From NCBI GenBank assembly GCA_043778225.1, contig JAYWGM010000064.1:1-19748 (forward strand): DNA of 19,748 bases. Direction: 5' to 3'. The position numbers and the translations under genes were made by a program. The first letter of the stretch is position 1; each line of letters starts with the position of its first letter. Below the pieces are notes generated by a model. The model was not told the DNA's origin. It saw only the letters and a list, made by a program, of their open reading frames with translations, and did not search any database. Below, piece after piece: positions 1 through 19,604 of this stretch. Source of the DNA: Deinococcales bacterium (GTDB lineage: Bacteria > Deinococcota > Deinococci > Deinococcales > JAAFIG01).

Positions 1-204
1 CTATCGGATGCCGAAATTCTAGGCTATGCCAAAAGCGGCGAAGGCTTAGACAAAGCTGGCGGCTATGGCATCCAAGCCCTTGGAATGGCACTGGTCGAAC
101 GCATCGAAGGCGACTTTTTTAATGTTGTTGGCTTACCGATTACCCGAATGCTACAGACTGCCAAAAGCCTTGGACTCGAGCTACTGCCATGGGTGAAACC
201 ATGA
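1..204 (+). CDS. maf: Maf family nucleoside triphosphate pyrophosphatase, 3' part (5' end lies outside the window)
   Basis: Frame 1 reads [46 protein letters not shown]...[11 protein letters not shown] and NVVGLP are Maf C-terminal motifs. The gene lies upstream of mreC. Confidence 0.93.
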
Positions 205-335
205 AGGTTAAAGGGTTAAAAGGTAAAAAGGGAGAAGGTCTTACTTTTAACCTTTTAACCTTCTTGACCACAACTACAGCACCTTCGGGCTTGGGTCGCT
301 TTTGCCCTTTTTACCCGAAAAGGGTGAAAGCGTGA
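201..335 (+). other. Putative 44-aa bridging ORF between maf and mreC
   Basis: ATG 201 overlaps the maf stop (ATGA). The frame is open to TGA 333-335, which overlaps the mreC GTG at 332 (GTGA). Product [44 protein letters not shown]. Translation is not demonstrated. Confidence 0.45.
203..263. repeat. Long imperfect inverted repeat built from AAGGTTAA-like units
   Basis: GAAGGTTAAAGGGTTAAAAGGTAA (203-226) pairs with TTACTTTTAACCTTTTAACCTTC (241-263), with one G-T pair and one bulge. Confidence 0.85.
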
Positions 336-1105
336 ACTCGAGAATCGGCTTATTGGTCGGAGCGCTGTTGGTGCTTTCCTTGGTCAGCACTCGCTTTGCG
401 CCGCGAGCGCCATTGGCGGTCTCGAGTACGATTGCACCACTCTGGATGGTCTTTAGTGTAGCCAGCTTAAACGTGCGCGGTTTTTTGGAAGCCATGATTC
501 TCGAGCGCGATTTACGCAGCGAAAATGCCGCCCTCAAAAACAAAGTCGGCAAACTTGAATTGCAAAGCTACCAACTCGAGCAAGAAGTGCGTAAGCTCGA
601 GGAAGTGGCATTGATTAAACGCACCCAAAGTCCTTCGGTGGCACTGGCGGCTCAAGTGATTGCCTTTAATTTTGATGCCTTGAATGCTGAGTTGCGAATC
701 AACAAAGGCAGCATTGATGGGGTAAAATTAAAAATGGCGGTCACCACGCCACAAGGTTTGGTCGGGGATGTGATGCAGGTGGATAGCCACAGCGCTTTGG
801 TTCGCACCATCCTCGACCCAGAGTTTCGGGTTGGGATTAAAGTGGCTAACTTTAACAGTGTCGCGGTAGCTCGAGGTGTGGCTGGGCGTTTGTTGCGGGC
901 AGAAGATTATAAAAATCCAAAAGTCAAAAAAGGCGATGTCGTCTTTAGTTCCAATTCCTCGGGCGGCGTTTTTCCAACCGTGCGCTTAGGGACAGTCTTG
1001 GTGGTTAGTCAATCTCGAGGCGATACCCTAGGGCAAACGCTTGAAATCAGTCCAATTGTGGACATCACGACGCTCGAGCAAGTTTACCTCTTGAGGTTGC
1101 CATGA
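332..1105 (+). CDS. mreC: Rod shape-determining protein MreC
   Basis: N-terminal hydrophobic anchor, coiled coil (LRSENAALK...LEQEVRKLEE), and INKGSIDGVK...AVTTPQGLVG and SSGGVFP motifs. GTG 332 is preferred over TTG 302 because a purine-rich AAGGGTG lies just upstream. Confidence 0.92.
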   Translation: MNSRIGLLVGALLVLSLVSTRFAPRAPLAVSSTIAPLWMVFSVASLNVRGFLEAMILERDLRSENAALKNKVGKLELQSYQLEQEVRKLEEVALIKRTQSPSVALAAQVIAFNFDALNAELRINKGSIDGVKLKMAVTTPQGLVGDVMQVDSHSALVRTILDPEFRVGIKVANFNSVAVARGVAGRLLRAEDYKNPKVKKGDVVFSSNSSGGVFPTVRLGTVLVVSQSRGDTLGQTLEISPIVDITTLEQVYLLRLP

Positions 1106-1157
1106 CCAACCGCGTGCTGAGGTTGCCATGACCAACCGCGTGCTGAGGTTGCCATGA
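1092..1157 (+). repeat. 26-bp tandem repeat (about 2.5 copies) at the mreC-mreD junction
   Basis: TGAGGTTGCCATGACCAACCGCGTGC at 1092-1117 and 1118-1143, then TGAGGTTGCCATGA at 1144-1157. The copies are exact. Confidence 0.97.
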
Positions 1158-1654
1158 TTTTTCGGCGAATTATTTTTGTTTTGGTTATCTTGGGCGTGCA
1201 AGGGGCAATGGGGGCGGTGCTTCCTGTCTTTATTTCGCCACCCGATTTATTTTTATTGGTTGCCTTGTTTGTAGCAACTCGAGTTCCGCTCTTTTTGGCG
1301 CTCTGCATTGGCTATAGCCTTGGACTACTGCAAGATGTGCTTGGTGTGGGTTTGGTTGGCTTTCATGCGGCGGGAATCTTGGCTGGTGTTTTTACCTCGA
1401 GTTTTGTGCGCCGTGGCTTGTCTGCCGATACCAGTTTTAACCATGCCACTACGGCTTTTGTGGCGTTGGTGGCAAAGTGGCTGGTGTTTATCGCGCTGAA
1501 CTATTGGACGCGCCAAGGGATTATTTCTTTAGAGACCCTGCTCTACCGGTTTTTGCCAGAGGTGGCTTTGACACTTTTACTCGGTCCACTTATTTTTGCC
1601 TTTTCTAACTGGGCATTTGGTCGTGGTAACTCGAATGATACTGGTTTACTTTAA
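1154..1654 (+). CDS. mreD: Rod shape-determining protein MreD
   Basis: 166-aa multi-pass membrane protein with PDLFLL and GLLQDVL motifs, directly after mreC. Confidence 0.9.
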   Translation: MIFRRIIFVLVILGVQGAMGAVLPVFISPPDLFLLVALFVATRVPLFLALCIGYSLGLLQDVLGVGLVGFHAAGILAGVFTSSFVRRGLSADTSFNHATTAFVALVAKWLVFIALNYWTRQGIISLETLLYRFLPEVALTLLLGPLIFAFSNWAFGRGNSNDTGLL

Positions 1655-1719
1655 GTATTTGCCGCCTACATTTTAGAATTTTCAGAAAGCGGCAATTCTG
1701 CCATTACGGCGGCAAATAC
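1655..1719. terminator. Stem-loop directly after mreD (possible terminator or stabiliser)
   Basis: Perfect 12-bp inverted repeat GTATTTGCCGCC (1655-1666) / GGCGGCAAATAC (1708-1719) with an inner AGAATT/AATTCT pair. There is no clear U-tract. Confidence 0.5.
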
Positions 1720-1744
1720 GTTATCCCTACTCCTGTTAGTCGCA

Positions 1745-1798
1745 AAATGTTTTAGCAAAAAACGCTAAAACATTTCGGGGGTTTACTTTAGGTATACT
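1745..1798 (+). promoter_or_regulatory. glpX leaderless promoter with an upstream 12-7-12 palindrome
   Basis: AAATGTTTTAGC (1745-1756) N7 GCTAAAACATTT (1764-1775). TATACT -10 at 1793-1798, 7 nt before ATG 1806. Confidence 0.65.
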
Positions 1799-1805
1799 CG
1801 AGGTC

Positions 1806-2801
1806 ATGACCCAACGAATAGACTCACCGATGGAACGGGCGCTGGTTCTCGAGATTGCGCGTGTCACCGAACAGGCAGCCCTAGAAGCCAGTCGTTTTGT
1901 TGGTAAAGGCGATAAAATTGCGGTAGATGGCGCTGGCACAGAAGCCATGCGCCAGACTTTAGGCGAAACCCATATTCGCGGCACAGTCGTGATTGGCGAA
2001 GGCGAAATGGACGAAGCGCCGATGCTTTATATTGGCGAACAGGTTGGGCTACAAACTCCAGATTCGTTTGAAGTGGATATTGCCGTAGACCCCGTGGAAG
2101 GCACAACCGTAGCGGCTCGAGGATTGCCCAACAGTGTGGCGGTGATTGCTTTATCCGAAAAAGGCGGTTTATTGGGCGCACCGGATATGTACATGGAAAA
2201 ACTGGTGGTTGCGCCGCCAGCAGTCGGGCGGGTCAATCTCGAGTGGCATTTGGAAGCCAATTTAAGTGCGATTGCCCAGAGCTTAGACCGTCCTATTGCT
2301 GATTTAACGATTGTGGTGCTTGACCGCCCGCGCCACGAAGACCTGATTGGACGCATCCGAGCCGCCGGCGCTCGAGTTAAGTTAATTGGCGACGGCGACG
2401 TGATTGCTGCCTTAGCTGTTGCGATGCGTGGCACTGGGGTTCATGCCCTGATGGGTTCGGGTGGTGCGCCAGAAGGTGTTTTGACGGCGGCTGCCATGAA
2501 ATGCCTCGGTGGTGAAATCCAAGGTAAATTTTTGCCCGCCAATAATGCCGAACTTGAGCGGTGTAAACGCATGGGAGTAGACCCAAACAAGATTTATGGC
2601 ACTCAAGACCTCGCGCCTGGCAAAGAAATTGTTTTTGCTGCCACGGGCATCACCGATGGCGAATTACTGCAAGGGGTACGGCGTTTTGTCGGCGGCTCGA
2701 GAACCCACACGATTGCGATGGGCTATGCCACTCGGGTGGTACGTTTTATGGATACGGTGCATCTCGAGGGGGAGGGCGCTCGGGTCAATATCCGCGTCTA
2801 A
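1806..2801 (+). CDS. glpX: Class II fructose-1,6-bisphosphatase
   Basis: Motifs [51 protein letters not shown] and FAATGITDG. Confidence 0.97.
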
Positions 2802-3531
2802 AAAAATCAAGAATTTCTTGTCGAATTTTTGGCATATGCGTTTCGTTAATAAAATGATTGCCTTCGGGAATAACAACCAAACGATTTGGCACACCTGCAT
2901 TCTCGAGTACATTTTGCAAAGCCTCGGCTTGAGGCAATGGCACGAGCGTGTCTTTTGCACCATGAATAATGAGCGTTGGGGCAGATTGGCTCGAGACTTG
3001 AAAAACTGGGCTGGCAGCCTTGGCAATTTTCGGGTGCTGGTCGGCTCGAGCGCCCAATAAAAAAGCAAAGGCAGTATCGGTGTACTCGAGTTTCCAGTCG
3101 GTGGGGTTACTTAAATCGGTAGGTGGACAAATACAAGCCACAGCCCGTAAACCACTCGAGACATCTGAACCAAGCAGCGCAGCGATATGCGCCCCTGCCG
3201 AAATGCCCCAAGCAAAAATTCGGTTTGGGTCTATTTTCAATTCGGCTGCATTCGCTCGGATAAAACGCACCACGGCTTTGGCATCCTCAAATTGGGCTGG
3301 AAAAACCGCCTCTTGGGCATAGCGATAATTGGCACTGACCACACAAAAACCGGCTTGTGCCAGAAATTCGGTTTCGGGCAGGTGTTTACCAAACATTTTC
3401 CAGCCACCACCATGAAAATGAATGGCTACAGGTAAGGTTGCGCTCGATTCTGGGCGCATGAGGTCAAGTAAGTTGGCTCGAGCCGTATTTACACCATACG
3501 CCACATTTGTTTTTACGATAAAATCACGCAT
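2785..3531 (-). CDS. Alpha/beta hydrolase (HSL/BD-FAE-like esterase)
   Basis: HGGGW oxyanion motif, GISAG nucleophile elbow, HGAKDTLVP and EGNH catalytic Asp/His region. Confidence 0.9.
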
Positions 3532-4198
3532 GGTTCAAAAGCCCTTGCTCACAATAGAGTTATTATGCCGAGAAGCGCAAGTGTTTTCAGTTGCCGAAAG
3601 CCAACACGCCCAAGTATCGCTATTTGGTGTGACCGACGGAAAAGCCATTGGCACGTATCTCGAGCATAAAATTCGTTTGTATCTGCTCGAGCGATACCAG
3701 TTTGAACTTGGTAACTCGGCAAGTGGAATTGATTTCCCAAATCTTGGTGTAGACATGAAAGTCACCAGCATTAAGCAACCACAATCATCTTGTCCGTTTA
3801 AGTCTGCAAGACAAAAAATTTATGGACTTGGTTATGGTTTGATTGTATTTGTGTACGACAAAACAGATAACCACGAAAGCAGAACTGGAACGCTTCACAT
3901 CACCGATACTGTGTTGATAGAAAAGCAACGAACAGCCGATTTTCAAATGACAAAAGGTCTACGACAAATTTTAGAAAACGAAGGTAACACCGATGACCTA
4001 ATAGCATTCATGACCGAAAAGAACCTGCCAGTGGATGAAATCGAACTGCAAAGCCTTGCCCGAGAAATTTTAATACATAAACCAGAACAAGGCTACTTAA
4101 CCATCTCCAATGCACTGCAATGGAGATTGCAATACGCTCGAGTGATTGAAAAGGCTGGAGCGGAAACAGGCTTGGTCTCTGTGTACAAAAACCCATGA
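3530..4198 (+). CDS. Type II restriction endonuclease, NspV-like (PD-(D/E)xK)
   Basis: GVTDGKAIGTYLEH, GIDFP...VDMKVTS..QPQSSCPF and LTISNALQWRLQY resemble R.NspV as recalled from memory. ATGA overlap with an adenine MTase. Start placed at ATG 3530, 5 nt after TAAAAT. Confidence 0.75.
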   Translation: MVQKPLLTIELLCREAQVFSVAESQHAQVSLFGVTDGKAIGTYLEHKIRLYLLERYQFELGNSASGIDFPNLGVDMKVTSIKQPQSSCPFKSARQKIYGLGYGLIVFVYDKTDNHESRTGTLHITDTVLIEKQRTADFQMTKGLRQILENEGNTDDLIAFMTEKNLPVDEIELQSLAREILIHKPEQGYLTISNALQWRLQYARVIEKAGAETGLVSVYKNP

Positions 4199-5706
4199 AA
4201 AACGCATTGAACAATCATCGGATTGAATTTGGGGATTTCCAAACACCCGATAACTTAGCGCTTGCCATCTGTCAAAAACTATGTGAATTGGGAATGAACC
4301 CAAACGTGATTCTCGAGCCGACCTGCGGCATTGGTGCATTTGTGATGGCAGCCGCACAGACATTCCCCAAAGTACAAAAAATACTGGGTTTTGAAATCAA
4401 TCAAACGTACTTAAACACCTTACAAAAACGCTTATTAGAGAACCCCAGCACAACTCGAGTTATTCTCGAGCAAACAGATTTTTTTAACACCACTTGGCAA
4501 GAAAAAATTGCAAACATACCCGAATCTGTTTTGGTACTTGGTAATTTCCCGTGGGTCACAAGTACCACCCAAAGTACAATTGGTGGGACGAACCTGCCAA
4601 AAAAATCGAATTTTCAAAAACGAACAGGTTTTGAAGCCATCAGTGGCAAAGCCAATTTTGATGTTTCCGAATGGATGCTGCTCAGTGTCCTGCGTTGGTT
4701 TGAAGGTCGGTCAGGCGACATTGCTATGCTGGTTAAAACATCGGTGGCACAAAAAATCTTGGCTTATGCCCAACGACAAAACATTGCACTTAAAGAGGCT
4801 TTTTTAATCAAAATAGATGCCAAACAGCACTTTGGAGCATCGGTAGAGGCTTGTTTACTGGTGATGCGATTAACGCAAAATCAGCAAAATACCAACCATG
4901 ACTACACGATTTTTGAAAATCTCGAGTATACCCACGGGCAACGGGTCGGGCATCGGCAGGGCTTAACCGTGGGTAATTTAAGCCAATTCGAGGAATTTAG
5001 GTATTTACTCGGCACAAGCCCGCAAAAATGGCGTTCGGGAATCAAACATGATGCCGCCGCAATCATGGAATTAACTCAAACCGAGCGCGGTCTCGAGAAC
5101 GGACTGGGCGAAATTGTTGAACTCGAGAAGACATACCTTTACCCGTTACTGAAAGGCTCGGACATTGGCAGTGGGAAAGCATGGCGTAAAAAATTTGTTT
5201 TGGTGACTCAGCAATTTGTGGGGCAGCCAACCCAGAATATCCGAGAAACTGCGCCTTTGACATGGGCGTACTTAGAAAAACACCGCCAAGCTCTCGAGGC
5301 AAGGGGCAGCACGATTTATAAAAAGAACCCGCCGTACTCGATTTTTGGCATTGGAGACTATACTTTCCGCCCTTGGCGCATCGCCATTTGTGCCTTATAC
5401 AAAGCCCTACGATTTCGGCTGGTTGCGCCAATAGAAAACCGCCCTGTGATGTTTGATGACACAGTGTATTACTTATCTTTTGAGACCCAAGCCGAGGCAA
5501 TGGATGTTCTCGAGAAGCTGAATTCTAAACCAGCCATTGGGTTGTTATCTTCCCTGATATTTTGGAATGAAAAACGCCCGATTAAAACAGGAATTTTGAA
5601 TCTGCTTGATTGGACATGGGTGGAAGAGCTAATGAATTCCACGGAAATACAACAAGAACGAGCATTCATAGTAAATATGGTTACTCAGATGCAAGATACC
5701 CAATAG
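4195..5706 (+). CDS. Amino (probably N6-adenine) DNA methyltransferase, gamma class, M.NspV-like
   Basis: Motif X FGDFQTP, motif I LEPTCGIGAF and motif IV variant GNFPW, followed by a C-terminal target-recognition region. Coupled to the endonuclease gene. Confidence 0.85.
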   Translation: MKNALNNHRIEFGDFQTPDNLALAICQKLCELGMNPNVILEPTCGIGAFVMAAAQTFPKVQKILGFEINQTYLNTLQKRLLENPSTTRVILEQTDFFNTTWQEKIANIPESVLVLGNFPWVTSTTQSTIGGTNLPKKSNFQKRTGFEAISGKANFDVSEWMLLSVLRWFEGRSGDIAMLVKTSVAQKILAYAQRQNIALKEAFLIKIDAKQHFGASVEACLLVMRLTQNQQNTNHDYTIFENLEYTHGQRVGHRQGLTVGNLSQFEEFRYLLGTSPQKWRSGIKHDAAAIMELTQTERGLENGLGEIVELEKTYLYPLLKGSDIGSGKAWRKKFVLVTQQFVGQPTQNIRETAPLTWAYLEKHRQALEARGSTIYKKNPPYSIFGIGDYTFRPWRIAICALYKALRFRLVAPIENRPVMFDDTVYYLSFETQAEAMDVLEKLNSKPAIGLLSSLIFWNEKRPIKTGILNLLDWTWVEELMNSTEIQQERAFIVNMVTQMQDTQ

Positions 5707-5724
5707 AAGCAATAGGAGCAAGGT

Positions 5725-5973
5725 ATGGCAAATATGCAAGAGTATTATCTAAAAAATTTCAGGCTCGATGTGCAAAGTTCGTATGAAGTATCTCATTTGG
5801 TGACTGAAATCAGAGAAGCAATTCATAACAAAGATCAATTCAGTATGGGATTTAATCTATACCAAATCGATTTGATTGATGGAAAAGTAACAATTTCATC
5901 AGGTTTTATAGAAGTCGAAATTATCTTGTCATACGAAGAATTTTTCCATGAAATGAGTAAGCCAGTCATCTAA
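5725..5973 (+). CDS. Small acidic hypothetical protein (82 aa)
   Basis: AGGAG Shine-Dalgarno just upstream of the ATG. AT-rich ORF filling the intergenic gap. Confidence 0.65.
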   Translation: MANMQEYYLKNFRLDVQSSYEVSHLVTEIREAIHNKDQFSMGFNLYQIDLIDGKVTISSGFIEVEIILSYEEFFHEMSKPVI

Positions 5974-6075
5974 ATTTTGTCTTTATCAAGTAGCTGTTAT
6001 AGCAGCTTACGCTACTCGAGTCTGAGCTTGGCACATAACAACAAAAAATCTGTCTGCGTCAAGGCTTCCAACCAT

Positions 6076-7608: not shown

Positions 7609-7646
7609 GTTACCCAGTATATAATCTGTTCCATGTTGCACAGTAT
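7595..7646 (-). repeat. 26-bp tandem duplication of the amidohydrolase -10 box and start codon
   Basis: ATAATCTGTTCCATGTTACCCAGTAT (7595-7620) and ATAATCTGTTCCATGTTGCACAGTAT (7621-7646), 24/26 identical. Confidence 0.92.
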
Positions 7647-7654
7647 GACCGATT

Positions 7655-7663
7655 TGGTAGACT
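7655..7663 (+). promoter_or_regulatory. Extended -10 leaderless promoter of the PqqD-kinase operon
   Basis: TGgTAGACT followed by 6 nt and then ATG 7670. Confidence 0.6.
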
Positions 7664-7669
7664 GAATCC

Positions 7670-7921
7670 ATGACCAAATCCCCCAACCCCGAAATTATTG
7701 TCACCGAACTCGAGGATGAACTGGTGCTGCTCAATCCACGCACCCAAGCGATGTTTACCTTAAACGGTACAGGTAAACTTATTTGGCAGAGCTTAGGTAA
7801 AAATACCCCCGAAGAAATTGCTGTAAAAATTACCCAAGCCTTTGAAATAGACCTCATAACCGCCCAAAAAGACACCACCGATTTACTCGAGACCCTAGAA
7901 AAATCTGGTTTGTTGCAATGA
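7670..7921 (+). CDS. PqqD family protein / RiPP recognition element
   Basis: 83 aa with the PqqD pattern ELEDELVLLN...MFTLNGTGKLIWQSL...EEIAVKITQAFEID...AQKD..DLLETLEKSGLL. Confidence 0.9.
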   Translation: MTKSPNPEIIVTELEDELVLLNPRTQAMFTLNGTGKLIWQSLGKNTPEEIAVKITQAFEIDLITAQKDTTDLLETLEKSGLLQ

Positions 7922-8811: not shown

Positions 8812-8834
8812 AAAGTTGACTTGCCAGCCTGTAC

Positions 8835-10249: not shown

Positions 10250-10344
10250 GGCTCGAGTCTTTTACACCGTCAAGCGGGTACATGGATTTAATGCAAAGCA
10301 TGGGCAAGCGACAAACAAGATTTTAAGTTGGCTCGAGCAGGCAT

Positions 10345-10367
10345 AAAAAATGCGCCTTTGTAGGCGC
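10345..10367 (-). terminator. Hairpin plus U-tract directly downstream of that promoter
   Basis: Minus strand GCGCCT-ACAA-AGGCGC-ATTTTTT. Confidence 0.6.
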
Positions 10368-10378
10368 TGATAAGAATA

Positions 10379-10407
10379 AGTATACGGCAATATGCAGAGT
10401 TTGTCAA
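10379..10407 (-). promoter_or_regulatory. Near-consensus sigma70 promoter on the minus strand
   Basis: The minus strand reads TTGACA (10407-10402), 17 nt, TATACT (10384-10379). Confidence 0.8.
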
Positions 10408-10485
10408 ATCTATGCAGTCCAGTCCGTCAAATACGGTTATTCTCGAGCTACGTGCTAGGCTTTACCGGTGAAAAAGCGACGGGGG

Positions 10486-10551
10486 TCGCCCTGTTTTTCT
10501 ATTTGTATGTTCAATGAAAAACCCTAAAGTCAAGACCTTTCGGAGGCTCTA
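10486..10551 (-). mobile_element. Partial copy (one end) of the MITE at 14908-15082
   Basis: The reverse complement matches 14908-14973 at 50/66 positions without gaps, including the TAGAGCCTCCGAAA terminus and AGAAAAACAGGGCGA. Confidence 0.8.
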
Positions 10552-10685
10552 CTGCTCGAGTAAAGCAAGTCGTTGAACTCATTGGATTGCCTAAAGTCTG
10601 TGATGGGCATGGTTTTCTTGCGCCGCGATTCTAAACTGCCAAATGATAGGATGAGTTTGAACTGTTTTTCAAAGGGGAATTCCAC

Positions 10686-13100
10686 ATGGCGCTTAAAAAA
10701 TCTGAACTCTATTCTTCGTTATGGCAAAGCTGCGATGAACTTCGTGGCGGCATGGATGCCAGCCAATACAAAGATTATGTGCTGGTGCTGCTGTTTATTA
10801 AGTACGTCAGCGATAAGTACGAAGGTCAACCTTATGCCCCAGTCACGATTCCAAGCGGCTCGAGTTTTAAGGACATGGTGGCACTCAAAGGCAACCCTGA
10901 AATTGGCGATCAAATCAACAAAAAGATTATCGCGCCGCTTGCCGATGCCAATAAACTCTCGGATATGCCCGATTTTAATGATGCCAGTAAATTGGGCAGT
11001 GGCAGCGAGATGGTCGAAAAACTGAGCAACTTAATTGCAATTTTTGAAAATAAAGCCCTTGATTTTGGGAAGAACCGAGCCGATGGCGACGATATTTTAG
11101 GTGACGCTTACGAGTACCTGATGCGCCACTTTGCGACCGAAAGCGGTAAGAGCAAAGGACAGTTTTATACCCCCGCCGAGGTCAGCCGTGTGATTGCCCA
11201 GATTATCGGGATTGACAAAGCCGACACCGCCAATAACACCACGGTTTACGACCCCACCTGCGGCTCGGGTTCGTTGCTCTTAAAAGTTGGCGATGCTGCC
11301 AGCGCCAAAGTAACCTTATACGGGCAAGAAAAAGATGCGGCGACCTCTGGTTTAGCGCGGATGAATATGTTCTTGCACGACAACCCAACGGCTCAGATTC
11401 TACAGGGCAACACCTTGTCAGACCCCAAATTTAAGGATGGAGACAACCTCAAGACCTTTGATTATGTGGTCGCAAACCCACCCTTTAGCGATAAACGCTG
11501 GAGTACCGGCGTAAACACCGAAAAAGACCCATTTGAACGTTTTCTCTTTGGCACACCACCCACCAAGCAAGGCGATTATGCCTATTTACTGCACATTATT
11601 CGCTCACTCAAAAGCAGTGGCAAAGCCGCTTGTGTGCTGCCGCACGGCGTGTTGTTTCGTGGCAATGCCGAAGCCGAGATTCGGCGCAATTTAATCCGCA
11701 AAGGCTACATTAAGGGGATTATTGGCTTACCCGCCAATCTTTTTTATGGCACGGGGATACCCGCCTGCATTGTGATAATAGACAAAGAAGATGCTTGGCG
11801 GCGCACTTCTGGCGAAACGGGCATTTTTATCATGGATGCCAGCCACGAATTTCTGAAAGACGGCAATAAAAACCGTTTACGAGAACGCGATATTCATAAA
11901 ATCGTGGATACCTTTACCAAGCAACAAGAAATTCCAAAGTACGCCCGCATGGTCAGTTTACTCGAACTCGAGAAAAACGAATTTAACCTCAATATCCCAA
12001 GGTACATAGACAGCCAAGAACTCGAGGATAGAGAAGACATCCAAGGTCATTTGCGCGGAGGCATTCCAGCTAAGGATTTGAGTGCCTTAGAAGCCTACTG
12101 GCGGGTGTGTCCGCAATTACAAACGGCGTTGTTCAAACCCAACCGCCCAGATTATTTGGATTTAACCGTCGAAAAAAGCAGCCTAAAAACAACCATCTAC
12201 GAACATCCAGAATTCAAAGCCTTTATGTTAAGCATGAACAACTTGTTCCTCGAGTGGCAAACACAAGCCAAGGTTCGCCTCAAAAACCTAGATTTGGGAT
12301 GCCAGCCAAAAGCCACCATTCAAGACTTAGCCGAAGGCTTACTGCGGCATTATGCCACCAAACCCCTAATAAACCAGTACGATGTTTTTCAGCACCTGAT
12401 GGATTACTGGGCAGCCACGATGCAGGACGACCTCTACCTGATTGCTGCCGATGGCTGGCAAGCCATTCCAAACCGAATTATCGAAAAAGATAAAAGAGGC
12501 AAAGAAAGGGATAAAGGTTGGACTTGCGACCTGATTCCCAAAGAATTGATTGTGGCAGGCTACTTTAAGCCAGAACAAGCCAGTATTTTGGCACTCGAGG
12601 CAGAGATAGAGAGCCTAAACGCCCAAATGACCGAGTTAGAAGAAGAACACGGCGGCGAAGAGGGCTTGTACAGCGAACTCGAGAAGGTCAGTAAAGCCAC
12701 TGTAACCGCCCGATTAAAGGACTTAAAATCGAGCCAAGACGAGGACAGCAAAGCCGAAGTCATCGCCCTCGAGACATGGTTAAAATACTGCAATGCCGAA
12801 AGCGAAGCCAAAAAAACCCTGCGGGAAGCCGAGAGCGCCCTCGACAAAAAAGCCCTCGAGCAATACCCACGCCTTCAAAAAGACGACATTCAGAAGCTGG
12901 TGATTGAAGACAAATGGCTAAAAGCCTTAGAACAAGCGATTCATGGCGAAATGGATCGAATCAGTCAAAGCCTGACCAGCCGCTTAAAAGAACTGGCAAC
13001 ACGTTACGAAAGCCCATTGCCAGAAGTCTCGAGCCGAGTTGTGGCACTCGAGCAGAAAGTAAACCAGCACCTAAGAAAAATGGGATTTACATGGAATTAA
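10686..13100 (+). CDS. hsdM: Type I restriction-modification methyltransferase subunit
   Basis: LWQSCDELRGGMDASQYKDY N-terminus, GQFYTP, YDPTCGSG, NPPF, PHGVLFRG and NLNIPRYI motifs. AAGGGG upstream. Confidence 0.97.
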   Translation: MALKKSELYSSLWQSCDELRGGMDASQYKDYVLVLLFIKYVSDKYEGQPYAPVTIPSGSSFKDMVALKGNPEIGDQINKKIIAPLADANKLSDMPDFNDASKLGSGSEMVEKLSNLIAIFENKALDFGKNRADGDDILGDAYEYLMRHFATESGKSKGQFYTPAEVSRVIAQIIGIDKADTANNTTVYDPTCGSGSLLLKVGDAASAKVTLYGQEKDAATSGLARMNMFLHDNPTAQILQGNTLSDPKFKDGDNLKTFDYVVANPPFSDKRWSTGVNTEKDPFERFLFGTPPTKQGDYAYLLHIIRSLKSSGKAACVLPHGVLFRGNAEAEIRRNLIRKGYIKGIIGLPANLFYGTGIPACIVIIDKEDAWRRTSGETGIFIMDASHEFLKDGNKNRLRERDIHKIVDTFTKQQEIPKYARMVSLLELEKNEFNLNIPRYIDSQELEDREDIQGHLRGGIPAKDLSALEAYWRVCPQLQTALFKPNRPDYLDLTVEKSSLKTTIYEHPEFKAFMLSMNNLFLEWQTQAKVRLKNLDLGCQPKATIQDLAEGLLRHYATKPLINQYDVFQHLMDYWAATMQDDLYLIAADGWQAIPNRIIEKDKRGKERDKGWTCDLIPKELIVAGYFKPEQASILALEAEIESLNAQMTELEEEHGGEEGLYSELEKVSKATVTARLKDLKSSQDEDSKAEVIALETWLKYCNAESEAKKTLREAESALDKKALEQYPRLQKDDIQKLVIEDKWLKALEQAIHGEMDRISQSLTSRLKELATRYESPLPEVSSRVVALEQKVNQHLRKMGFTWN

Positions 13101-13125
13101 AACGCGCCCATACCATTTTGGTACT

Positions 13126-13449
13126 GCCGAACCTTTGCAACTTTTGTAACACGTTGGGCAAGTCATGTTAAAGAAATGTCATTTTCTTAACACGTTCGGC
13201 GTTTCATGTACACAAAATGCTATTTTCCTGTGTATGAGTTTCGATATTAGGCGGACTGCTGTCCAATTTGACATCGCATACCTAAAGCCTCAAATGTCCC
13301 AAAAAGCGAAACAGGGCATTGCGCTTTTAGGTAGGAGTATAAAAAAGGCTTTTTTTACCCATGAATTACCAAACGTAGGTAGAAACTCGAGTTTTCTACC
13401 CATGACATTTGCGCTAAGTACACAAAATGCCATTTTCCTGTGCATGAAT
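13126..13449. repeat. Degenerate array of imperfect palindromes with about 41-42-bp period between hsdM and hsdS
   Basis: Units include CATGTTAAAGAAATGTCATTTTCTTAACACG, GTACACAAAATGCTATTTTCCTGTGTATGA (13208-13237), GTAGGTAGAAACTCGAGTTTTCTACCCATG and GTACACAAAATGCCATTTTCCTGTGCATGA (13418-13447). The second and fourth are 28/30 identical and 210 bp apart. Confidence 0.7.
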
Positions 13450-13542
13450 AACCAGCCCCAATTCAAGCTCGAGCAGCCAGCCATTGCCAGAAGCAGAAGC
13501 GTAAAGCAGCACCTCGAGAAGATGGGGGAAGTATGGAAGTAA
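13165..13542 (+). other. Putative 125-aa bridging ORF ending in a copy of the HsdM C-terminus
   Basis: Ends VKQHLEKMGEVWK* versus HsdM VNQHLRKMGFTWN*. Contains TQNAIFLCM twice and overlaps the hsdS ATG. Confidence 0.45.
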
Positions 13543-14816
13543 AAGCGGGATACAAACAAACAGAAGTTGGGATAATTCCAGAAGATTGGGAGGTAAAAAT
13601 CCTAGGGGAAATTGTGCAGTATACAAATGGGAAAGCTCACGAAAATAGTATCAATGAATTTGGAAAATATATTGTCGTAAATTCTAAATTCATTTCAACA
13701 GATGGCGAAGTTAAGAAATATTCAGATGAATGCTTTTCTCCGACGGCAAAAGGTGAAATCCTGATGGTCATGAGCGATGTACCTAATGGGCGAGCAATCG
13801 CACGGTGCTTTTTTGTGGAACACAATGATACCTATACCGTCAATCAGCGTATTTGTACGATTCGTCAAAGTCAGATAAATGGAAGATTGCTGTTCTATAA
13901 GTTAAATCGCAATCCGTACTATTTAGCATTTGATGATGGTGTAAAGCAAACAAATCTTAGAAAAAATGACGTACTCTCTTGTCCAATACCTTGCCCTCCA
14001 ACCCTTCTCGAGCAGGAAGCCATTGCCGAAGCGTTAAGTGATGCGGATGCCCTGATTGAATCCCTCGAGCAACTGATAACCAAGAAGCGCCAAATAAAAC
14101 AAGGCACAATGCAGGAATTGCTAACTGGAAAAACGCGGCTCGAGGGATTTAGAAACAAAAGTGGATTTAAGCAAACAGACATTGGAATGATTCCAGAAGA
14201 TTGGGAGGCTGTGAATTTATCTGAAGTTGTCAAGAAATTTCAGAACGGTTACGCATTTTCGTCTGTCGGATATGTAAAAAGCGGTATGCCTATTGTGACA
14301 ATGGCACAAATTGGACTAGACGGAACTTTTCAATTTGATGAACAAGTGGTCAATTATTGGTCATTTCAGGAAGGCTCACATTTAATAGACTTTCAAATTT
14401 TCAGAGGCGATCTGATTATTGCTATGACTGATGTGACACCCGAAAAGAATTTAATTGGCAGAATGACAGTCGTTATTGAAATTGGTCCTTTACTGTTGAA
14501 TCAGCGAGTAGGACTATTGAGGCTAAATCCCGAGAAAATCATTCCCTATTTTCTTTGTGCATTTTCCAACTCGAGCATATGGCGTAGTTATTCACAGGCT
14601 GTTGCCTCTTTAGGTGTACAAGCCAATATTGGTACAAAAGAAATCCGTTTGGGTAAAGTCCCACTTCCAACTCTTCTCGAGCAACAAGCCATTGCCTCGG
14701 TTCTCTCCGATATGGACTCAGAAATCACGGCGCTCGAATCAAAACTCGAGAAGGCGCGGCAAGTCAAACACGGCATGATGCACAATCTTTTGACGGGTAG
14801 AATTCGGTTGGTGTAA
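13533..14816 (+). CDS. hsdS: Type I R-M specificity subunit
   Basis: Two TRDs between repeated conserved blocks GYKQTEVGIIPEDWE / GFKQTDIGMIPEDWE and PTLLEQEAIA / PTLLEQQAIA. Ends LLTGRIRLV. Confidence 0.96.
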   Translation: MEVKAGYKQTEVGIIPEDWEVKILGEIVQYTNGKAHENSINEFGKYIVVNSKFISTDGEVKKYSDECFSPTAKGEILMVMSDVPNGRAIARCFFVEHNDTYTVNQRICTIRQSQINGRLLFYKLNRNPYYLAFDDGVKQTNLRKNDVLSCPIPCPPTLLEQEAIAEALSDADALIESLEQLITKKRQIKQGTMQELLTGKTRLEGFRNKSGFKQTDIGMIPEDWEAVNLSEVVKKFQNGYAFSSVGYVKSGMPIVTMAQIGLDGTFQFDEQVVNYWSFQEGSHLIDFQIFRGDLIIAMTDVTPEKNLIGRMTVVIEIGPLLLNQRVGLLRLNPEKIIPYFLCAFSNSSIWRSYSQAVASLGVQANIGTKEIRLGKVPLPTLLEQQAIASVLSDMDSEITALESKLEKARQVKHGMMHNLLTGRIRLV

Positions 14817-14850
14817 AAAAAACCAGAAAAGCAAGAAATAGACCAATTTG

Positions 14851-14888
14851 TAAAATGTCGGTGGTTTACCAAAAGTACCGACATTTTA
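14851..14888. promoter_or_regulatory. Second, diverged copy of the AbiEi operator-like palindrome
   Basis: TAAAATGTCGGT-N14-ACCGACATTTTA, colinear with 15758-15795. Confidence 0.7.
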
Positions 14889-14907
14889 TGAAAATGGCTT
14901 GTAAAAA

Positions 14908-15082
14908 TAGAGCCTCCGAAAAGTCTGGATTCTAGGGCATACCTTTGCATTTCAAACCAGAAAAACAGGGCGAACACGGGGGTTCGCCCCTACCTAACGT
15001 ATCTCTTTTGTCTTTTTTGTAGGGACAGACCCCTGTGTCTGTCCTGTGACAACGATGTATTTTCATTCTTTCGGAGGCTCTA
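14908..15082. mobile_element. 175-bp MITE-like non-autonomous element
   Basis: 14-bp perfect terminal inverted repeats TAGAGCCTCCGAAA (14908-14921) / TTTCGGAGGCTCTA (15069-15082), flanked by the 8-bp direct repeat TGTAAAAA (14900-14907 and 15083-15090). Confidence 0.88.
14967..15045. repeat. Inverted pair of GTAG-type REP sequences (REPIN-like)
   Basis: Minus strand 14993-14967 GTAG-GGGCGAAC-CCCCGT-GTTCGCCC-T; plus strand 15019-15045 GTAG-GGACAGAC-CCCTGT-GTCTGTCC-T. Confidence 0.85.
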
Positions 15083-15153
15083 TGTAAAAACGAGCCTTGG
15101 CTTTTGGCTAAGTTTAACAAACGAGCTTTGACCGAAGCGGCAATGTTTTTCAT
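15083..15153 (-). pseudogene. Truncated AbiEii-family nucleotidyltransferase toxin (N-terminal 23 codons only)
   Basis: MKNIAASVKARLLNLAKSQG is a typical AbiEii N-terminus. It has an ATGA overlap with the AbiEi stop and runs into the MITE. Confidence 0.85.
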
Positions 15154-15758
15154 GCCAGTACCGCTTCGGTATAGATACGCATTTTTTGTTCTACCAAGCA
15201 CACTCGAGCGGCGGCAAAGAGTTTTTTTAAGTCACGGTCTTGGCGGCTTAAATAACTTTTTAGGGCTTCAAGAAAAATACTTCGTTCAATCCGATGACTT
15301 AAATGCAGCACATCCGCTAAGGTTTTTTCTTTAGAATAAATCCGAATTTGTCCATGACCAACTGCGTAGGTTTCGATACCATACTCAAATTGTTTAGGCG
15401 AAAAATAGTACAGCGCCAGTGGTGGATACTCGAGTTTGGGACGACGGGCTTTATTGCTTATGGCTAAGTGAATCTCGGAAGGGGCGACTGTCCCCAATTG
15501 ATAAAAAGCCAATGCTGAAAGGCTACAAATTACCGCCTTGGGAATTCGTAGCATCACCTCGAGTAAGTGGTCTTGGTCTGAGCCGACACTACCAACCAAG
15601 CGGTAGACACCATATTGGGTACGTTCGAGTAACCCAAGTTTGGTGTAATAAGATAGCCAATGGGCTGGCAAACCAGACTCTTGTACTGTTTTAGTAGACA
15701 CCAAGCCGTGATGTTGGCTTAGTAAACTCGAGAGGGTTAGAGGCAAAACATTGTTCAT
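15150..15758 (-). CDS. Type IV toxin-antitoxin AbiEi family antitoxin / transcriptional regulator
   Basis: Winged-HTH N-terminus (GLLERTQYGVYRL), AVICSLSALAFYQL and IRIYSKEKTLAD. Start placed at ATG 15758, inside the operator palindrome. Confidence 0.9.
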   Translation of the reverse strand: MNNVLPLTLSSLLSQHHGLVSTKTVQESGLPAHWLSYYTKLGLLERTQYGVYRLVGSVGSDQDHLLEVMLRIPKAVICSLSALAFYQLGTVAPSEIHLAISNKARRPKLEYPPLALYYFSPKQFEYGIETYAVGHGQIRIYSKEKTLADVLHLSHRIERSIFLEALKSYLSRQDRDLKKLFAAARVCLVEQKMRIYTEAVLA

Positions 15759-15799
15759 AAAGTGTCGGTAGTTTAGCATAATTACCGACACTTTATGAA
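15754..15799. promoter_or_regulatory. AbiEi autoregulatory operator and promoter
   Basis: Perfect 17-bp inverted repeat TTCATAAAGTGTCGGTA (15754-15770) N12 TACCGACACTTTATGAA (15783-15799). It encloses a minus-strand TGcTAAACT -10 and overlaps the start codon. Confidence 0.8.
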
Positions 15800-15825
15800 A
15801 GTACAAGCAAGGCTGTTTTCAAAGG

Positions 15826-15831
15826 TAAACT
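15826..15831 (+). promoter_or_regulatory. Leaderless -10 box of hsdR
   Basis: TAAACT, 6 nt, ATG 15838, the same geometry as at glpX, the PqqD gene and the amidohydrolase. Confidence 0.6.
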
Positions 15832-15837
15832 AAGCAC

Positions 15838-18800
15838 ATGAATCTCGGTCAATCTGAACGTGCGACACAAAATCGTGTGATTGCTTTGTTCCGTCAAGAA
15901 CTTGGCTATCGGTACTTGGGCGATTGGTCTGACCGCGATAAAAACAGCAATCTCGAGGAGGGTCTGCTGATTGCTCATTTACAAAAATGTGGCTATTCGG
16001 CGGCGCTTATTTCGGGGGCGCTCTATAAATTACAGACCGAGGCAAGTCATCCTAATCGTGGTTTATACGAAAACAACAAAGCGGTTTATCAGCTTTTGCG
16101 CTATGGTGTGCAAGTCAAGGTTGCTGCTTCCCAAAACACCCAGACGGTGCATTTGATAGATTGGTTGCATCCTGAACTAAACGATTTTGCAATTGCCGAG
16201 GAAGTCACTTTGCGTGGGCATCGGCAACGCCGACCCGATATTGTGTTGTACTTAAATGGAATTGCCGTGGGTGTTCTCGAGTTAAAAAATAGCCGTGTTT
16301 CGATAGGCGATGGGATTCGGCAAAACATTTCTAATCAAAGCCCCGAATTTAACGAATGGTTTTTTTCGACGGTGCAATTTGTATTGGCGGGCAATGATTC
16401 CCAAGGGTTACGCTACGGCTCGATTAAAACCGAGGAAAAATTCTTTTTGACTTGGAAAGAAGACGAAACCGATAACTCGAGATTTAAGCTCGATAAATAC
16501 CTCTTAAAAATGGCTGATAAGTCGCGCTTGCTCGAGTTAATTTATGATTTTGTGTTGTTCGATGGCGGAGTTAAAAAATTGCCTCGGGTGCATCAGTATT
16601 TTGGGATTAAAGCTGCTCAGAGCCGAATTTTGGCGCGTCAGGGCGGAATTATTTGGCATACCCAAGGCAGTGGTAAAAGCATTGTTATGGTTTTATTAGC
16701 CAAGTGGATTCTCGAGCATAACCCACAAGCTCGAGTGGCGATTATTACCGACCGCGACGAATTAGATAAGCAAATCGAAGGTGTTTTTAGGGACGCTGGC
16801 GAAACGATTAAGCGCACCAGCAGCGCCCGCCAACTCATGCAGCAATTGGGGCAAGCAACACCGCGTTTGTTGTGTTCATTGGTGCATAAGTTTGGTCGTC
16901 AGGGCGTGGATGACTTTGAAGTCTTTATTAAAGAACTCGAGGCGCAGCCACCCTTTGTGGTCGGTCAGGTCTTTGTCTTTGTCGATGAGTGTCACCGCAC
17001 CCAAAGCGGCAAGCTCAATCGGGTGATGAAGGCACTGATGCCCAATGCGATTTTTATTGGCTTTACGGGAACGCCGCTCTTAAAAAAGGATAAACAAACC
17101 AGTTTGGAAGTCTTTGGTGGCTATATTCACACCTATAAATTCAGCGAAGCCGTCGAGGATAAAGTGGTGCTGGATTTAATTTACGAAGCCCGTGATATTG
17201 ACCAAAGCCTCGGTTCGGTGGACAAAATAGATGCTTGGTTTGATGCCAAGACGCGGGGCTTGAACGACTGGAAAAAAGATGAGTTAAAAAAGCAGTGGGG
17301 AACGATGCAAAAAGTCTTGAGTTCACGCTCGAGAATGGATCGGGTGGTCAGTGATATTGTGTTTGATTTTAGTATCAAACCGCGAATTTCCGAGGAACGC
17401 GGCACAGCTATTTTGGTGGCTTCGAGTATTTATGAAGCCTGTAAGTATTTTGAGTTGTTCCAAAAAACAGTCTTTAAGGGGCGCTGCGCCGTGATTACTT
17501 CGTACAATCCGCAATCCAAGGACATCGCGCTCGAGGACACGGGCGCAAACACCGAAACCGATAAGCAATTTATTTTTGAGACCTACACCAAGTTACTCGA
17601 GACGGTTGCTGCTACGCCCAACAGCACCAAAACCGAAACCTACGAAGAACAAGCCAAGCACCAATTTAAGTTCAGTCCAGCCAGCCTGAAATTGCTGATT
17701 GTGGTCGATAAATTACTGACTGGTTTTGATGCGCCTAGCTGCACCTATCTCTACATTGATAAGAGTATGCAAGACCACGGCTTATTCCAAGCCATTTGTC
17801 GCACCAATCGGCTGGATGGTGATGACAAAGAATTTGGCTATATTGTGGATTACAAGGATTTATTTAAGAAAGTTAAAAACGCCATTTCGGTCTATGCTTC
17901 CGAGTTAGACCACAGTGCTGGCGGGGTAGACCCCGAGGTGCTGCTGCAAAACCGTTTAAGCCTAGGGCGTGAACGCTTAGAAACCGCCCTCGAGACACTG
18001 GCGCTGCTTTGCGAACCGGTGAACCCACCTTCGGGCGAACTCGAGCATATACGTTACTTTTGTGGCAACACCGAAATCCCTGAGGACTTAAAAGCCACCG
18101 AAGCGCCTCGGATTGCTTTTTATAAAGCCGTGGTCTCGCTCTTGCGGGCATTTGCAAACATTGCCGATGAATTGCAGTCGGCAGGGTACTCGCCAAGCGA
18201 AATTGAGCGAATCAACCAAAAACTAAACCAGTACCTAAAACTGCGCGACACGATTCGCTTAGCCAGTGGTGAAATCCTCGATACAAAGTCTTATGAAGCC
18301 GATATGCGGCACTTAATAGACACCTACATCGAAGCCAAAGAACCCAGACGAATCTCGCCGTTTGAAACCATGCCGTTGCTCGAGGTAATTGCTAAACTGG
18401 GCATGAAACAAGCCCTAGAAGAAATGCCCAACGGGATAAAAGGCAACCAAGAAGCGATTGCCGAAACCATCGAGAACAATGTGCGCCGTAAAATCATTAA
18501 AGAACACCTGAGTGACCCAGCTTTTTTTGAGAAAATGTCGGCGTTGCTCGATGAAATTATTGCCAACCGCCGAGCCAAAGCCCTCGAGTACGAAAGTTAT
18601 TTACAGCAGATTGCCGAATTGGTCAAAAAAGTGCTGACTGGCTTTGCCGAAAACACCCCAAAGCGCATTAACACCCCAGCTTTACGGGCTTTGTACAGCA
18701 ACCTTGGGCAGAACGAAGAACTTGCGCTTGAGGTGCATAAAGCGGTTCAACACATCCGCCCTGACGACTGGCGCGGCATTAGAACCCGCGAGAACGTAAT

Positions 18801-18888
18801 CAAAGCAGCGTTGCTGCCGCTTCTTGGTCATCAAAGCGAAGTTGAACGGGTGTTCTTACTGCTTGTCTCGCAGACCGGAGAATACTGA
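15838..18888 (+). CDS. hsdR: Type I restriction endonuclease subunit R
   Basis: Nuclease motif RPDIVLYLNG...ELK, Walker A HTQGSGKS, DECH, FTGTP, LLTGFDAP and QAICRTNR. Confidence 0.97.
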   Translation: MNLGQSERATQNRVIALFRQELGYRYLGDWSDRDKNSNLEEGLLIAHLQKCGYSAALISGALYKLQTEASHPNRGLYENNKAVYQLLRYGVQVKVAASQNTQTVHLIDWLHPELNDFAIAEEVTLRGHRQRRPDIVLYLNGIAVGVLELKNSRVSIGDGIRQNISNQSPEFNEWFFSTVQFVLAGNDSQGLRYGSIKTEEKFFLTWKEDETDNSRFKLDKYLLKMADKSRLLELIYDFVLFDGGVKKLPRVHQYFGIKAAQSRILARQGGIIWHTQGSGKSIVMVLLAKWILEHNPQARVAIITDRDELDKQIEGVFRDAGETIKRTSSARQLMQQLGQATPRLLCSLVHKFGRQGVDDFEVFIKELEAQPPFVVGQVFVFVDECHRTQSGKLNRVMKALMPNAIFIGFTGTPLLKKDKQTSLEVFGGYIHTYKFSEAVEDKVVLDLIYEARDIDQSLGSVDKIDAWFDAKTRGLNDWKKDELKKQWGTMQKVLSSRSRMDRVVSDIVFDFSIKPRISEERGTAILVASSIYEACKYFELFQKTVFKGRCAVITSYNPQSKDIALEDTGANTETDKQFIFETYTKLLETVAATPNSTKTETYEEQAKHQFKFSPASLKLLIVVDKLLTGFDAPSCTYLYIDKSMQDHGLFQAICRTNRLDGDDKEFGYIVDYKDLFKKVKNAISVYASELDHSAGGVDPEVLLQNRLSLGRERLETALETLALLCEPVNPPSGELEHIRYFCGNTEIPEDLKATEAPRIAFYKAVVSLLRAFANIADELQSAGYSPSEIERINQKLNQYLKLRDTIRLASGEILDTKSYEADMRHLIDTYIEAKEPRRISPFETMPLLEVIAKLGMKQALEEMPNGIKGNQEAIAETIENNVRRKIIKEHLSDPAFFEKMSALLDEIIANRRAKALEYESYLQQIAELVKKVLTGFAENTPKRINTPALRALYSNLGQNEELALEVHKAVQHIRPDDWRGIRTRENVIKAALLPLLGHQSEVERVFLLLVSQTGEY

Positions 18889-19604
18889 TGGCATTTACTT
18901 TAGAGCTTTCAGACATCACCATCGAAGTGATTCAAAAAGACATTAAAAACATTCACCTCAGTGTTTTCCCACCAACCGGAACAGCCAAAATTGCCGCACC
19001 AGCCCACCTTAACCCAGAAACAATCCGCTTATTTGCGATTGGTAAGTTAGGTTGGATTAAACGCCAACAACAAAAACTTCGCAATCAAATCCGCGAAAGT
19101 CCACGCGATTACCTGACTCGAGAAAGCCATTATGTCTGGGGAAAGCGTTACTTGCTTAAAATCATCGAACAAGACAGCAGCCCAGCCGTGTTACTCGAGC
19201 ATAAAACCCTGGTCCTCAAATGTAAACCAGCCACCAGCCATGCCAAACGCGAAGCGATTCTAGCAGCTTGGTACAGAGAACTGATTAAAAGTGTGCTACC
19301 AACCCTAATCCAAAAATGGGAAGCGATTCTGGGCGTTCAAGTCAACAAAACCTTTATTCAACACATGAAAACCAAATGGGGAAGCTGCAAGGCGGCTCAA
19401 GGTAACATCAGACTCAACACCGAATTGGCAAAAAAACCACCAGAATGCCTCGAGTACATTCTGGTGCATGAAATGATTCACTTACTCGAGCCGACCCACA
19501 ACCAAAGATTTTTTGCCCTGATGGATGCCTTTATGCCCAATTGGCGAATCGAAAGGGACAAGCTAAACCACTTACCTGTTCGTCACGAACACTGGCAATA
19601 CTGA
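18888..19604 (+). CDS. M48/DUF45 (YgjP-like) metal-dependent hydrolase, commonly downstream of hsdR
   Basis: MKTKWGSC, YILVHEMIHLLEPTHNQRF (HExxH) and MPNW. TGATG overlap with the hsdR stop. Confidence 0.92.
   Translation: MAFTLELSDITIEVIQKDIKNIHLSVFPPTGTAKIAAPAHLNPETIRLFAIGKLGWIKRQQQKLRNQIRESPRDYLTRESHYVWGKRYLLKIIEQDSSPAVLLEHKTLVLKCKPATSHAKREAILAAWYRELIKSVLPTLIQKWEAILGVQVNKTFIQHMKTKWGSCKAAQGNIRLNTELAKKPPECLEYILVHEMIHLLEPTHNQRFFALMDAFMPNWRIERDKLNHLPVRHEHWQY

Follow-up and report, generated by a model that had tools for sequence, protein, structure and literature searches.

CTCGAG is a highly iterated palindrome in a family of Deinococcales

The 19,748-base contig JAYWGM010000064.1 of a Deinococcales bacterium (contig C64; the window, i.e. 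the whole stretch of DNA that was analyzed) contains the palindrome CTCGAG exactly 111 times, or once in about 178 bases, with the first copy at 175-180 and the last at 19485-19490. In 200 dinucleotide-preserving shuffles of the window the word was found 2.38 times on average (standard deviation 1.45, maximum 7) and none of the 200 reached 111, corresponding to an about 47-fold excess. The initial annotation of the window had reported the same number and span of sites, had estimated an about 25-fold excess (about 23-fold over its flat expectation of 4-5 sites) and had likened the word to HIP1 (GCGATCGC), the highly iterated palindrome (HIP) of cyanobacteria. This label is justified: CTCGAG is a true HIP, which exceeds expectation more than tenfold, occupies all reading frames as well as non-coding DNA, spreads by substitution and characterizes a whole lineage with raised retention of its sites.

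Abundance and placement of the word

The window was taken from a genome (G000) of 4.03 Mb, which is assembled in 107 contigs and is 89% complete. With 24,877 copies, one per 162 bases, CTCGAG is the commonest hexamer of this genome, and the Markov comparison suggested in the initial annotation, when run genome-wide, yielded ratios of observed to expected counts (O/E) of 26.7 at zero order and 47 at first order. The next-ranked hexamers overlap CTCGAG, and the most abundant unrelated hexamer is present in 5,347 copies. At maximal order the Markov ratio amounts to 1.16, a value which is uninformative because the sub-words are themselves built from CTCGAG. The bases flanking the word are weakly biased and the word is therefore the hexamer itself; the sole outlier is CCTCGAGG, an eight-base palindrome with 243 copies, whereas the flank frequencies predict about 812 and the remaining 15 pairs of flanks range from 1,117 to 2,203.

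Coding and non-coding DNA were compared by means of 2,961 non-overlapping open reading frames (ORFs) of at least 150 amino acids (aa), which cover 84% of G000. The density of CTCGAG was 6.19 per kb within these ORFs and 6.09 per kb outside, where short genes are still included. Altogether 20,928 sites were observed in the ORFs, distributed over the three frames as 12,383, 4,197 and 4,348, as compared to 2,174 ± 54 sites after within-gene shuffling of synonymous codons (9.6-fold), a procedure which preserves both the protein and the codon usage, the latter being itself inflated by CTCGAG. Shuffling of the codon order left 968 sites. A codon-pair shuffle, as named in the initial annotation, would conserve the in-frame copies by its very design, and the point at issue is answered by the comparison with DNA outside the ORFs. 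Since the density outside the ORFs is equal and the synonymous shuffle is exceeded to such an extent, codon or dipeptide bias fails as the cause, as had been suspected from the window, and the excess is a DNA-level signal.

With respect to placement, the density of CTCGAG is flat across gene starts and stops (6-8 per kb at stops). Furthermore, the site counts are near Poisson, with a variance-to-mean ratio of 0.88 on the 500-base scale and 1.01 on the 1-kb scale (range 0.88-1.22), which fits a process that is blind to local function. Spacings below 20 bases occur at 0.3-0.5 of expectation, and a 1.14-1.29-fold enrichment was seen between 50 and 200 bases; at distance 7, the arrangement CTCGAGNCTCGAG was found 123 times in G000 versus 30-53 times for the distances 8-11.

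The word also affects the proteins. Leu-Glu is the most over-represented dipeptide in G000 (17,867 copies, O/E 2.33; Glu-Leu, O/E 0.96), and 69% of all Leu-Glu pairs are spelled CTC-GAG, so that half of the CTC codons (12,383 of 23,683) and half of the GAG codons (12,383 of 25,018) lie inside CTCGAG. In sampled relatives the O/E of Leu-Glu was 2.24 and 2.16 for the CTCGAG-dense genomes G006 and G013 and 1.37 and 1.21 for the non-dense genomes G151 and G019. By arithmetic from the dipeptide counts, the word would have rewritten about one codon pair in 110 across the proteome. CTCGAG arises and persists even where this changes proteins and, with Leu-Glu as the dipeptide in greatest excess, represents a clear case of a DNA-level force overriding protein sequence.

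For the window itself, 17 ORFs were accepted from the ORF list and a Pfam scan. They hold 101 sites in 17,807 bases, the remaining 1,941 bases holding 10. In agreement with the initial annotation all three frames are used (CTC-GAG, 65 sites; xCT CGA Gxx, 19; xxC TCG AGx, 17), and the six intergenic sites that it cited recur among the ten found outside the accepted ORFs (175, 1797, 6015, 7886, 9660, 9733, 10252, 10332, 10442 and 10555), of which 9660 and 9733 fall in a doubtful ORF that was excluded from the accepted set. Its remark that even restriction-modification genes carry many sites likewise holds for the two systems among the following features, whose genes we regard as long-resident.

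175..19490, no strand: CTCGAG array, 111 copies (dinucleotide shuffles and ORF placement)
1806..2801, plus strand: glpX (fructose-1,6-bisphosphatase), six sites at 1848, 2116, 2238, 2371, 2696 and 2763 (Pfam scan)
2696..2701, plus strand: site private to G000, Gly-Ala-Arg to Gly-Ser-Arg (glpX alignment column 896)
3422..5706, plus strand: type II restriction-modification pair, 12 sites (NF052465 match)
3422-4198, plus strand: endonuclease of the type II pair (NF052465, 340.5 bits)
4195-5706, plus strand: methyltransferase-like protein of the type II pair, 503 aa (no significant Pfam match)
10252..10560, no strand: four sites (10252, 10332, 10442, 10555) within a spacer of 436 bases upstream of hsdM
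10686..18888, plus strand: type I restriction-modification block, 37 sites, 4.5 per kb (Pfam matches)
10686-13100, plus strand: HsdM-like protein (Pfam)
13533-14816, plus strand: HsdS (Pfam)
15150-15806, minus strand: AbiEi-like gene (Pfam)
15838-18888, plus strand: HsdR (Pfam)

The HsdM-like protein comprises 804 aa; its methyltransferase domains stop near residue 448 and are followed by about 350 residues without a Pfam match. A gene for a YgjP-like metallopeptidase (18888-19604) comes after hsdR. At 1652-1788 the window carries a dispersed repeat of about 137 bases, which is highly structured (-45 kcal/mol), contains no CTCGAG and has 31 BLAST matches in G000, 15 of which span 110 bases or more, besides many in other genomes of the family.

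Spread, gain and loss of sites

The excess extends over the family to which G000 belongs and is a lineage property, as had been supposed. Each of the 19 genomes that represent the family at species level, from five genera and 57-94% complete, contains 4.3-6.8 CTCGAG per kb, densities that are based on rounded genome sizes, and the G+C content of three of them that were sampled runs from 44.6% to 58.7%. Genomes of such widely differing G+C with the same word density constitute a sharper natural experiment. Independent public assemblies gave the same picture, with 150 sites in 21 kb at locus L001 and 131 in 21 kb at locus L012. Relatives of GlpX assign G000 to the Deinococcales, the closest named record (92% identity) being an uncultured "Deinococcales bacterium" assembly, for which the locus in question holds 150 sites in 21 kb.

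Outside the family, comparable densities among 364 Deinococcota genomes (a tally including one unpublished genome, G325, on which no conclusion depends) were limited to three members of a second family, namely G149 (8.6 per kb), G150 (7.0 per kb) and G032 (3.6 per kb). A further genome, G151, belongs to the same genus (g19) as G149 and G150 and contains 0.30 sites per kb, G150 and G151 both having about 50% G+C. G150 and G151 share 63% identity in DprA and 57% in ComEC, as compared to 51% and 39-41% between G150 and the family. As G150 is closest to G151 and far from the family, the trait arose twice or was lost repeatedly, and the pair provides a natural contrast at equal G+C (7.0 versus 0.3 per kb), for which a comparison of gene content could name the responsible factor. 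The largest genus of the second family, presumably Deinococcus, has 0.01-0.36 sites per kb, and the other families of the phylum have about 0.3 to 3.5. The reversed word GAGCTC was counted 0-568 times in each of the 19 family genomes, in most of them fewer than 30 times, and 2, 30 and 1,197 times in G149, G150 and G032, respectively. At least 80 viral-contig loci with three close sites were detected, the 25 densest of them listed at 55-72% G+C; among the matches listed, viral loci are mostly rich in G+C and usually contain GAGCTC as well, so that the signature of the family was not shown and these loci are uninformative on its phages.

In order to follow the sites between close relatives, 400 kb of the congener G006 were aligned to G000, resulting in 112 segments with a total of 142 kb at 74% identity. 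Thereby 565 CTCGAG sites were found to be shared, i.e. 62-66% of the 855 sites in G006 and the 912 in G000, versus 21.5% for all hexamers, and CTCGAG ranks first among the 503 hexamers with 60 or more occurrences. A gap lies opposite an aligned site in just 34 of 889 and 32 of 944 cases, and since so few sites face gaps the differences arise by substitution. The transition neighbors CTTGAG and CTCAAG are retained to just 6%, and about half of them face CTCGAG in the other genome; single-step differences between the congeners hit the central CG most (74 of 173). Retention lies about threefold above background, and the picture is one of decay balanced by re-creation.

Repeated gains were found by aligning orthologues, a comparison that had been proposed with the initial annotation. 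The glpX genes of the 19 family genomes contain 103 sites over 19 alignment columns, none of which is filled in all 19, and nine outgroup genes contain five sites. In column 896 (window position 2696) a site exists in G000 alone, where it encodes GSR, as compared to GAR in 16 family genes and all nine outgroup genes. In this gap-free alignment independent gains by substitution are seen, some of them non-synonymous, and several sites fall at amino-acid differences.

The word is missing from a few regions. The three longest CTCGAG-free stretches in G000 are a polysaccharide-synthesis cluster, a defense-like island and a restriction-modification islet, all three being probably typical imported DNA. 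Two CTCGAG-free stretches are located as follows.

G000:C44:57429-63066 (L173): longest CTCGAG-free stretch, 5.6 kb, with glycosyltransferases, EpsG, a flippase-like protein and a DegT aminotransferase
G000:C41:54500-60500 (L174): locus with a CTCGAG-free stretch of 4.3 kb

The genes of L174 encode a 1063-aa protein without a Pfam match, a 158-aa protein and a protein combining a receiver domain with a PNP_UDP_1 phosphorylase, an architecture which we take to recall the Detocs anti-phage system. In these genomes, the lack of CTCGAG can be used in practice to flag imported DNA. The 16S rRNA genes are free of the word, too. A primer-pattern search yielded no 16S gene in G000 and the comparison was made with G013, a single contig, in which each of two 16S genes has no site and the 3 kb flanks hold 14 or 15. 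Each of these genes is flanked by pairs of CTCGAG exactly 13 bases apart (1405/1418 and 3088/3101 in L206; 1400/1413 and 3156/3169 in L207), which may lie in the 16S processing stems.

Other short words are almost purged. In G000, 34 of the 64 palindromic hexamers have an O/E below 0.1, with GACGTC, AGGCCT and GGGCCC at one copy each in 4 Mb, and among the tetramers GGCC has 131 copies (O/E 0.01) and GATC an O/E of 0.13. The purged words differ between G000 and a sample of G006 (L153-L172), the O/E being 0.01 versus 0.79 for GTGCAC, 0.01 versus 0.62 for GATATC and 0.07 versus 1.26 for AAGCTT. Since the purged set differs between congeners, whole words must be removed quickly relative to species divergence, whereas CTCGAG is constant, which points to a stably inherited factor.

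Forces that may maintain the word

We tentatively favor, as a serious possibility, that the force behind CTCGAG is a transmission bias (molecular drive) tied to DNA exchange and not a benefit of each site. With about 5-7 sites per kb the word would have reached an equilibrium, in which decay by ordinary, mostly transition, mutations would be offset by a sequence-specific force that creates and retains CTCGAG wherever the DNA tolerates it. A stably inherited protein would recognize the palindrome, and DNA bearing it would be favored in exchange within the lineage, the likely steps being uptake, protection or recombination of transforming DNA. This explanation is favored because of the number of sites, their near-random placement, their constancy across genera and G+C and the contrast with the fast-changing purges, and furthermore because HIP1 has been reported to enhance transformation, an effect dependent on methylation, in the accessible parts of a recent paper that argues for transmission bias of HIP1 (PMC13756078). 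The DNA-level excess, the cost to proteins, the retention and repeated gain of sites and the lack of the word in imported islands and 16S genes are counted in its favor as well, as is the presence of ComEC and DprA. We infer that the force is a drive acting at transformation or recombination and that its recognition factor is not a mobile methyltransferase. In its most far-reaching form, the proposal would be a lineage-wide molecular drive on a six-base palindrome without a dedicated, vertically inherited methyltransferase, e.g. an uptake or recombination bias, which would be strong enough to rewrite codon pairs at the frequency given above and would, in a single order, have been acquired on two occasions or lost several times (family f1; two of three g19 genomes); this we consider rather unlikely.

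Several points weigh against a transmission bias. The competence proteins ComEC and DprA, which are necessary for such a bias, were found in all five genomes searched and discriminate nothing, because they are equally present in G151, the congener without the excess. The recognition factor for CTCGAG is still a putative one, and the retention of sites is equally expected under per-site selection or a repair ratchet. Known uptake sequences are non-palindromic, 9-12 bases long and about tenfold sparser, and the transformability of the family is assumed from cultured Deinococcus and Thermus. Finally, the effect of HIP1 on transformation depends on methylation, and no methyltransferase shared by the family was found here.

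A second explanation, put forward by Elhai for HIP1, was contained in the initial annotation and appears doubtful to us. According to it an orphan methyltransferase marks CTCGAG or TCGA, and methyl-directed or very-short-patch-like repair ratchets the number of sites up. Such a role would be in line with the co-occurrence of HIP1 and alternate HIPs with cognate methyltransferases, as stated in the available text of PMC4390886, and with the peak of single-step congener differences at the central CG. CTCGAG and TCGA are also given as methylated motifs of one host-virus group in hot-spring communities, whose taxon is not named in the accessible portion of that source (10.64898/2026.06.24.734251). 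G000 itself contains at least 20 methyltransferase genes (five full C5, about four N6_N4, three D12 and eight gamma-class or Eco57I-type).

However, a census of methyltransferase classes across the 19 family genomes (PF00145, PF01555, PF02086, PF02384 and PF07669) unveiled no family present in all of them, as far as genomes of 57-94% completeness and sequences from which no specificity can be read allow, and none of the five classes was found in all of G002, G006, G010 and G013. C5 methyltransferases were not found in G010 (91% complete) and G002, the N6_N4 class not in G013 (one contig), G014 and G002, and the D12 class not in G006, G010, G012 and G008. In the gamma class, type I and long fused enzymes prevail, for which no orthologues common to the family were seen. 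A trait that is stable over five genera would need an unstable, repeatedly replaced enzyme.

Individual proteins were rejected as universal determinant as well. A TaqI-like protein of 650 aa is present in just three of the 19 genomes, a 501-aa Eco57I-type protein in two (G000 and G006, 43% identity) and a 1341-aa type IIG-like protein in two (G000 and G009) plus G150; the 503-aa protein of the window has relatives in 12 of the 364 Deinococcota genomes, eight of them among the 19. This last protein has no Pfam match better than E 0.01, shows faint signals of S-adenosylmethionine (SAM) methyltransferases and belongs to a family of more than 5,000 proteins. Since this family is invisible to Pfam, a Pfam-based census can miss methyltransferases, a blind spot which speaks for the ratchet. 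An NCBIfam scan of 55 methyltransferases and their neighbors returned generic names and no specificities, and a sequence search of the Protein Data Bank (PDB) with the type II pair gave nothing below E 0.19. The search for the XhoI endonuclease (PF04555), without a match in G000, was uninformative, the control being silent in all 14 genomes as well.

PF27258 is found in relatives of the NF052465 endonuclease, whose identity in Proteobacteria and cyanobacteria amounts to 70-80%. Within the genus the segment 3422-5706 is the best-conserved DNA of the window (83-85%), and in G003 and G004 short remnants alone are left. Two genomes have a methyltransferase gene close to dprA, at a distance of no more than about 1-2 kb, namely a D12-class gene in G000:C89 (L099) and a relative of the 503-aa protein in G013:C1:536911-539819; this placement may be due to chance or to a hot spot of insertion.

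The word statistics were also contrary to a very-short-patch mechanism, and no Vsr was found in G000 (89% complete). CTTGAG (O/E 1.40) and CTCAAG (O/E 1.42) have the highest values among the 18 words differing from CTCGAG by one base in G000, and a very-short-patch mechanism is disfavored because these two words, which are expected to be depleted, are not. TCGA outside CTCGAG occurs 11,565 times versus 15,717 expected (O/E 0.74). As far as gene census and word counts indicate, the idea of a methylating enzyme with biased repair is weakened.

Per-site function, kept by ordinary selection, is comparably unlikely in our view. Here each site would bind a nucleoid or chromosome-organizing protein or would act as a self-mark in defense; a chromosome-organizing or an uptake signal had been offered as alternatives in the initial annotation, and either may apply. 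The threefold better retention of CTCGAG relative to other hexamers is compatible with such a function, as are the depletion of spacings below 20 bases and the enrichment of those of 50-200 bases, the co-occurrence with a very heavy restriction load, as judged from the purged palindromes, and the scarcity of GAGCTC in the family, G149 and G150, G032 keeping its 1,197 copies. On the other hand, by a load argument of ours about 25,000 sites would each need a selectable benefit, the near-Poisson counts exhibit no strong periodicity, the sites bear no relation to gene starts or ends, and the congener G151 lives without the excess.

That the excess follows passively from base composition, from codon usage or from a preference for certain dipeptides is highly improbable and is refuted for the family by the equal density outside ORFs, the shuffles with all three frames in use, the amino-acid changes that create sites and the lack of an excess in G151 at the same G+C, even if such an origin would suit the high-G+C relative G019, whose milder excess (O/E 4.4) is just 1.6-fold above the synonymous shuffle, and genus g9 of the phylum, in which CTCGAG and its reverse have similar counts. 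An assembly artifact or sequence manipulation, hardly conceivable at all, is refuted by the independent assemblies, the spread over all 19 family genomes and the in-frame sites in conserved genes such as glpX.

Comparison with known systems

To our knowledge, highly iterated palindromes are a 30-year puzzle known only from cyanobacteria. A report of a CTCGAG excess in Deinococcales or elsewhere was not found in the published literature, subscription journals being mostly outside the search.

The DNA uptake sequences (DUS) of Neisseria and uptake signal sequences (USS) of Pasteurellaceae have 9-12 bases, are non-palindromic and occur about once per kb, often as inverted pairs behind genes. Like CTCGAG, they are genome-wide words of point-mutation origin, which are thought to be kept by transmission bias in transformable bacteria, are shared by relatives and are scarce in imported DNA. 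In contrast, CTCGAG is a 6-base palindrome, is about six times denser and is flat at gene ends; the hallmark of an oriented 9-12-base word with inverted pairs at gene ends was not observed.

Dcm/Vsr at CCWGG in E. coli, a methylation-linked repair by which its own target becomes more frequent, is similar in principle, but its effect is well under twofold and it depletes the T:G product word, whereas the excess of CTCGAG is 27-fold, no Vsr was found in G000, C5 enzymes are not universal in the family and the product word is not depleted. Restriction-site avoidance likewise acts genome-wide on short palindromes and is extreme in G000 for other words. Its sign is opposite, however, and the avoided words vary between congeners, while CTCGAG is constant across the family.

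The closest resemblance in kind is to HIP1 and the alternate HIPs, which are short palindromes as well, over-represented tens-fold in genic and intergenic DNA, spread by substitution and retained above background; as for HIP1, the word marks an entire lineage, from which it is missing in odd members. HIP papers deal with cyanobacteria only, as far as the accessible portions of PMC4390886 and PMC13756078 extend, and the former gives a HIP1 density of 300-2,700 per Mb in the text available. A quasi-periodic spacing of HIP1 is described in the part of Xu et al. 2018 (PMC5861425) that could be consulted. CTCGAG differs in being a hexamer and not an octamer, in belonging to another phylum and in its several times higher density of about 6,200 per Mb; it makes Leu-Glu the top dipeptide, no co-distributed methyltransferase was found and its spacing is weakly even. 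With a second, denser case from an unrelated phylum, HIPs are shown to be a general phenomenon.

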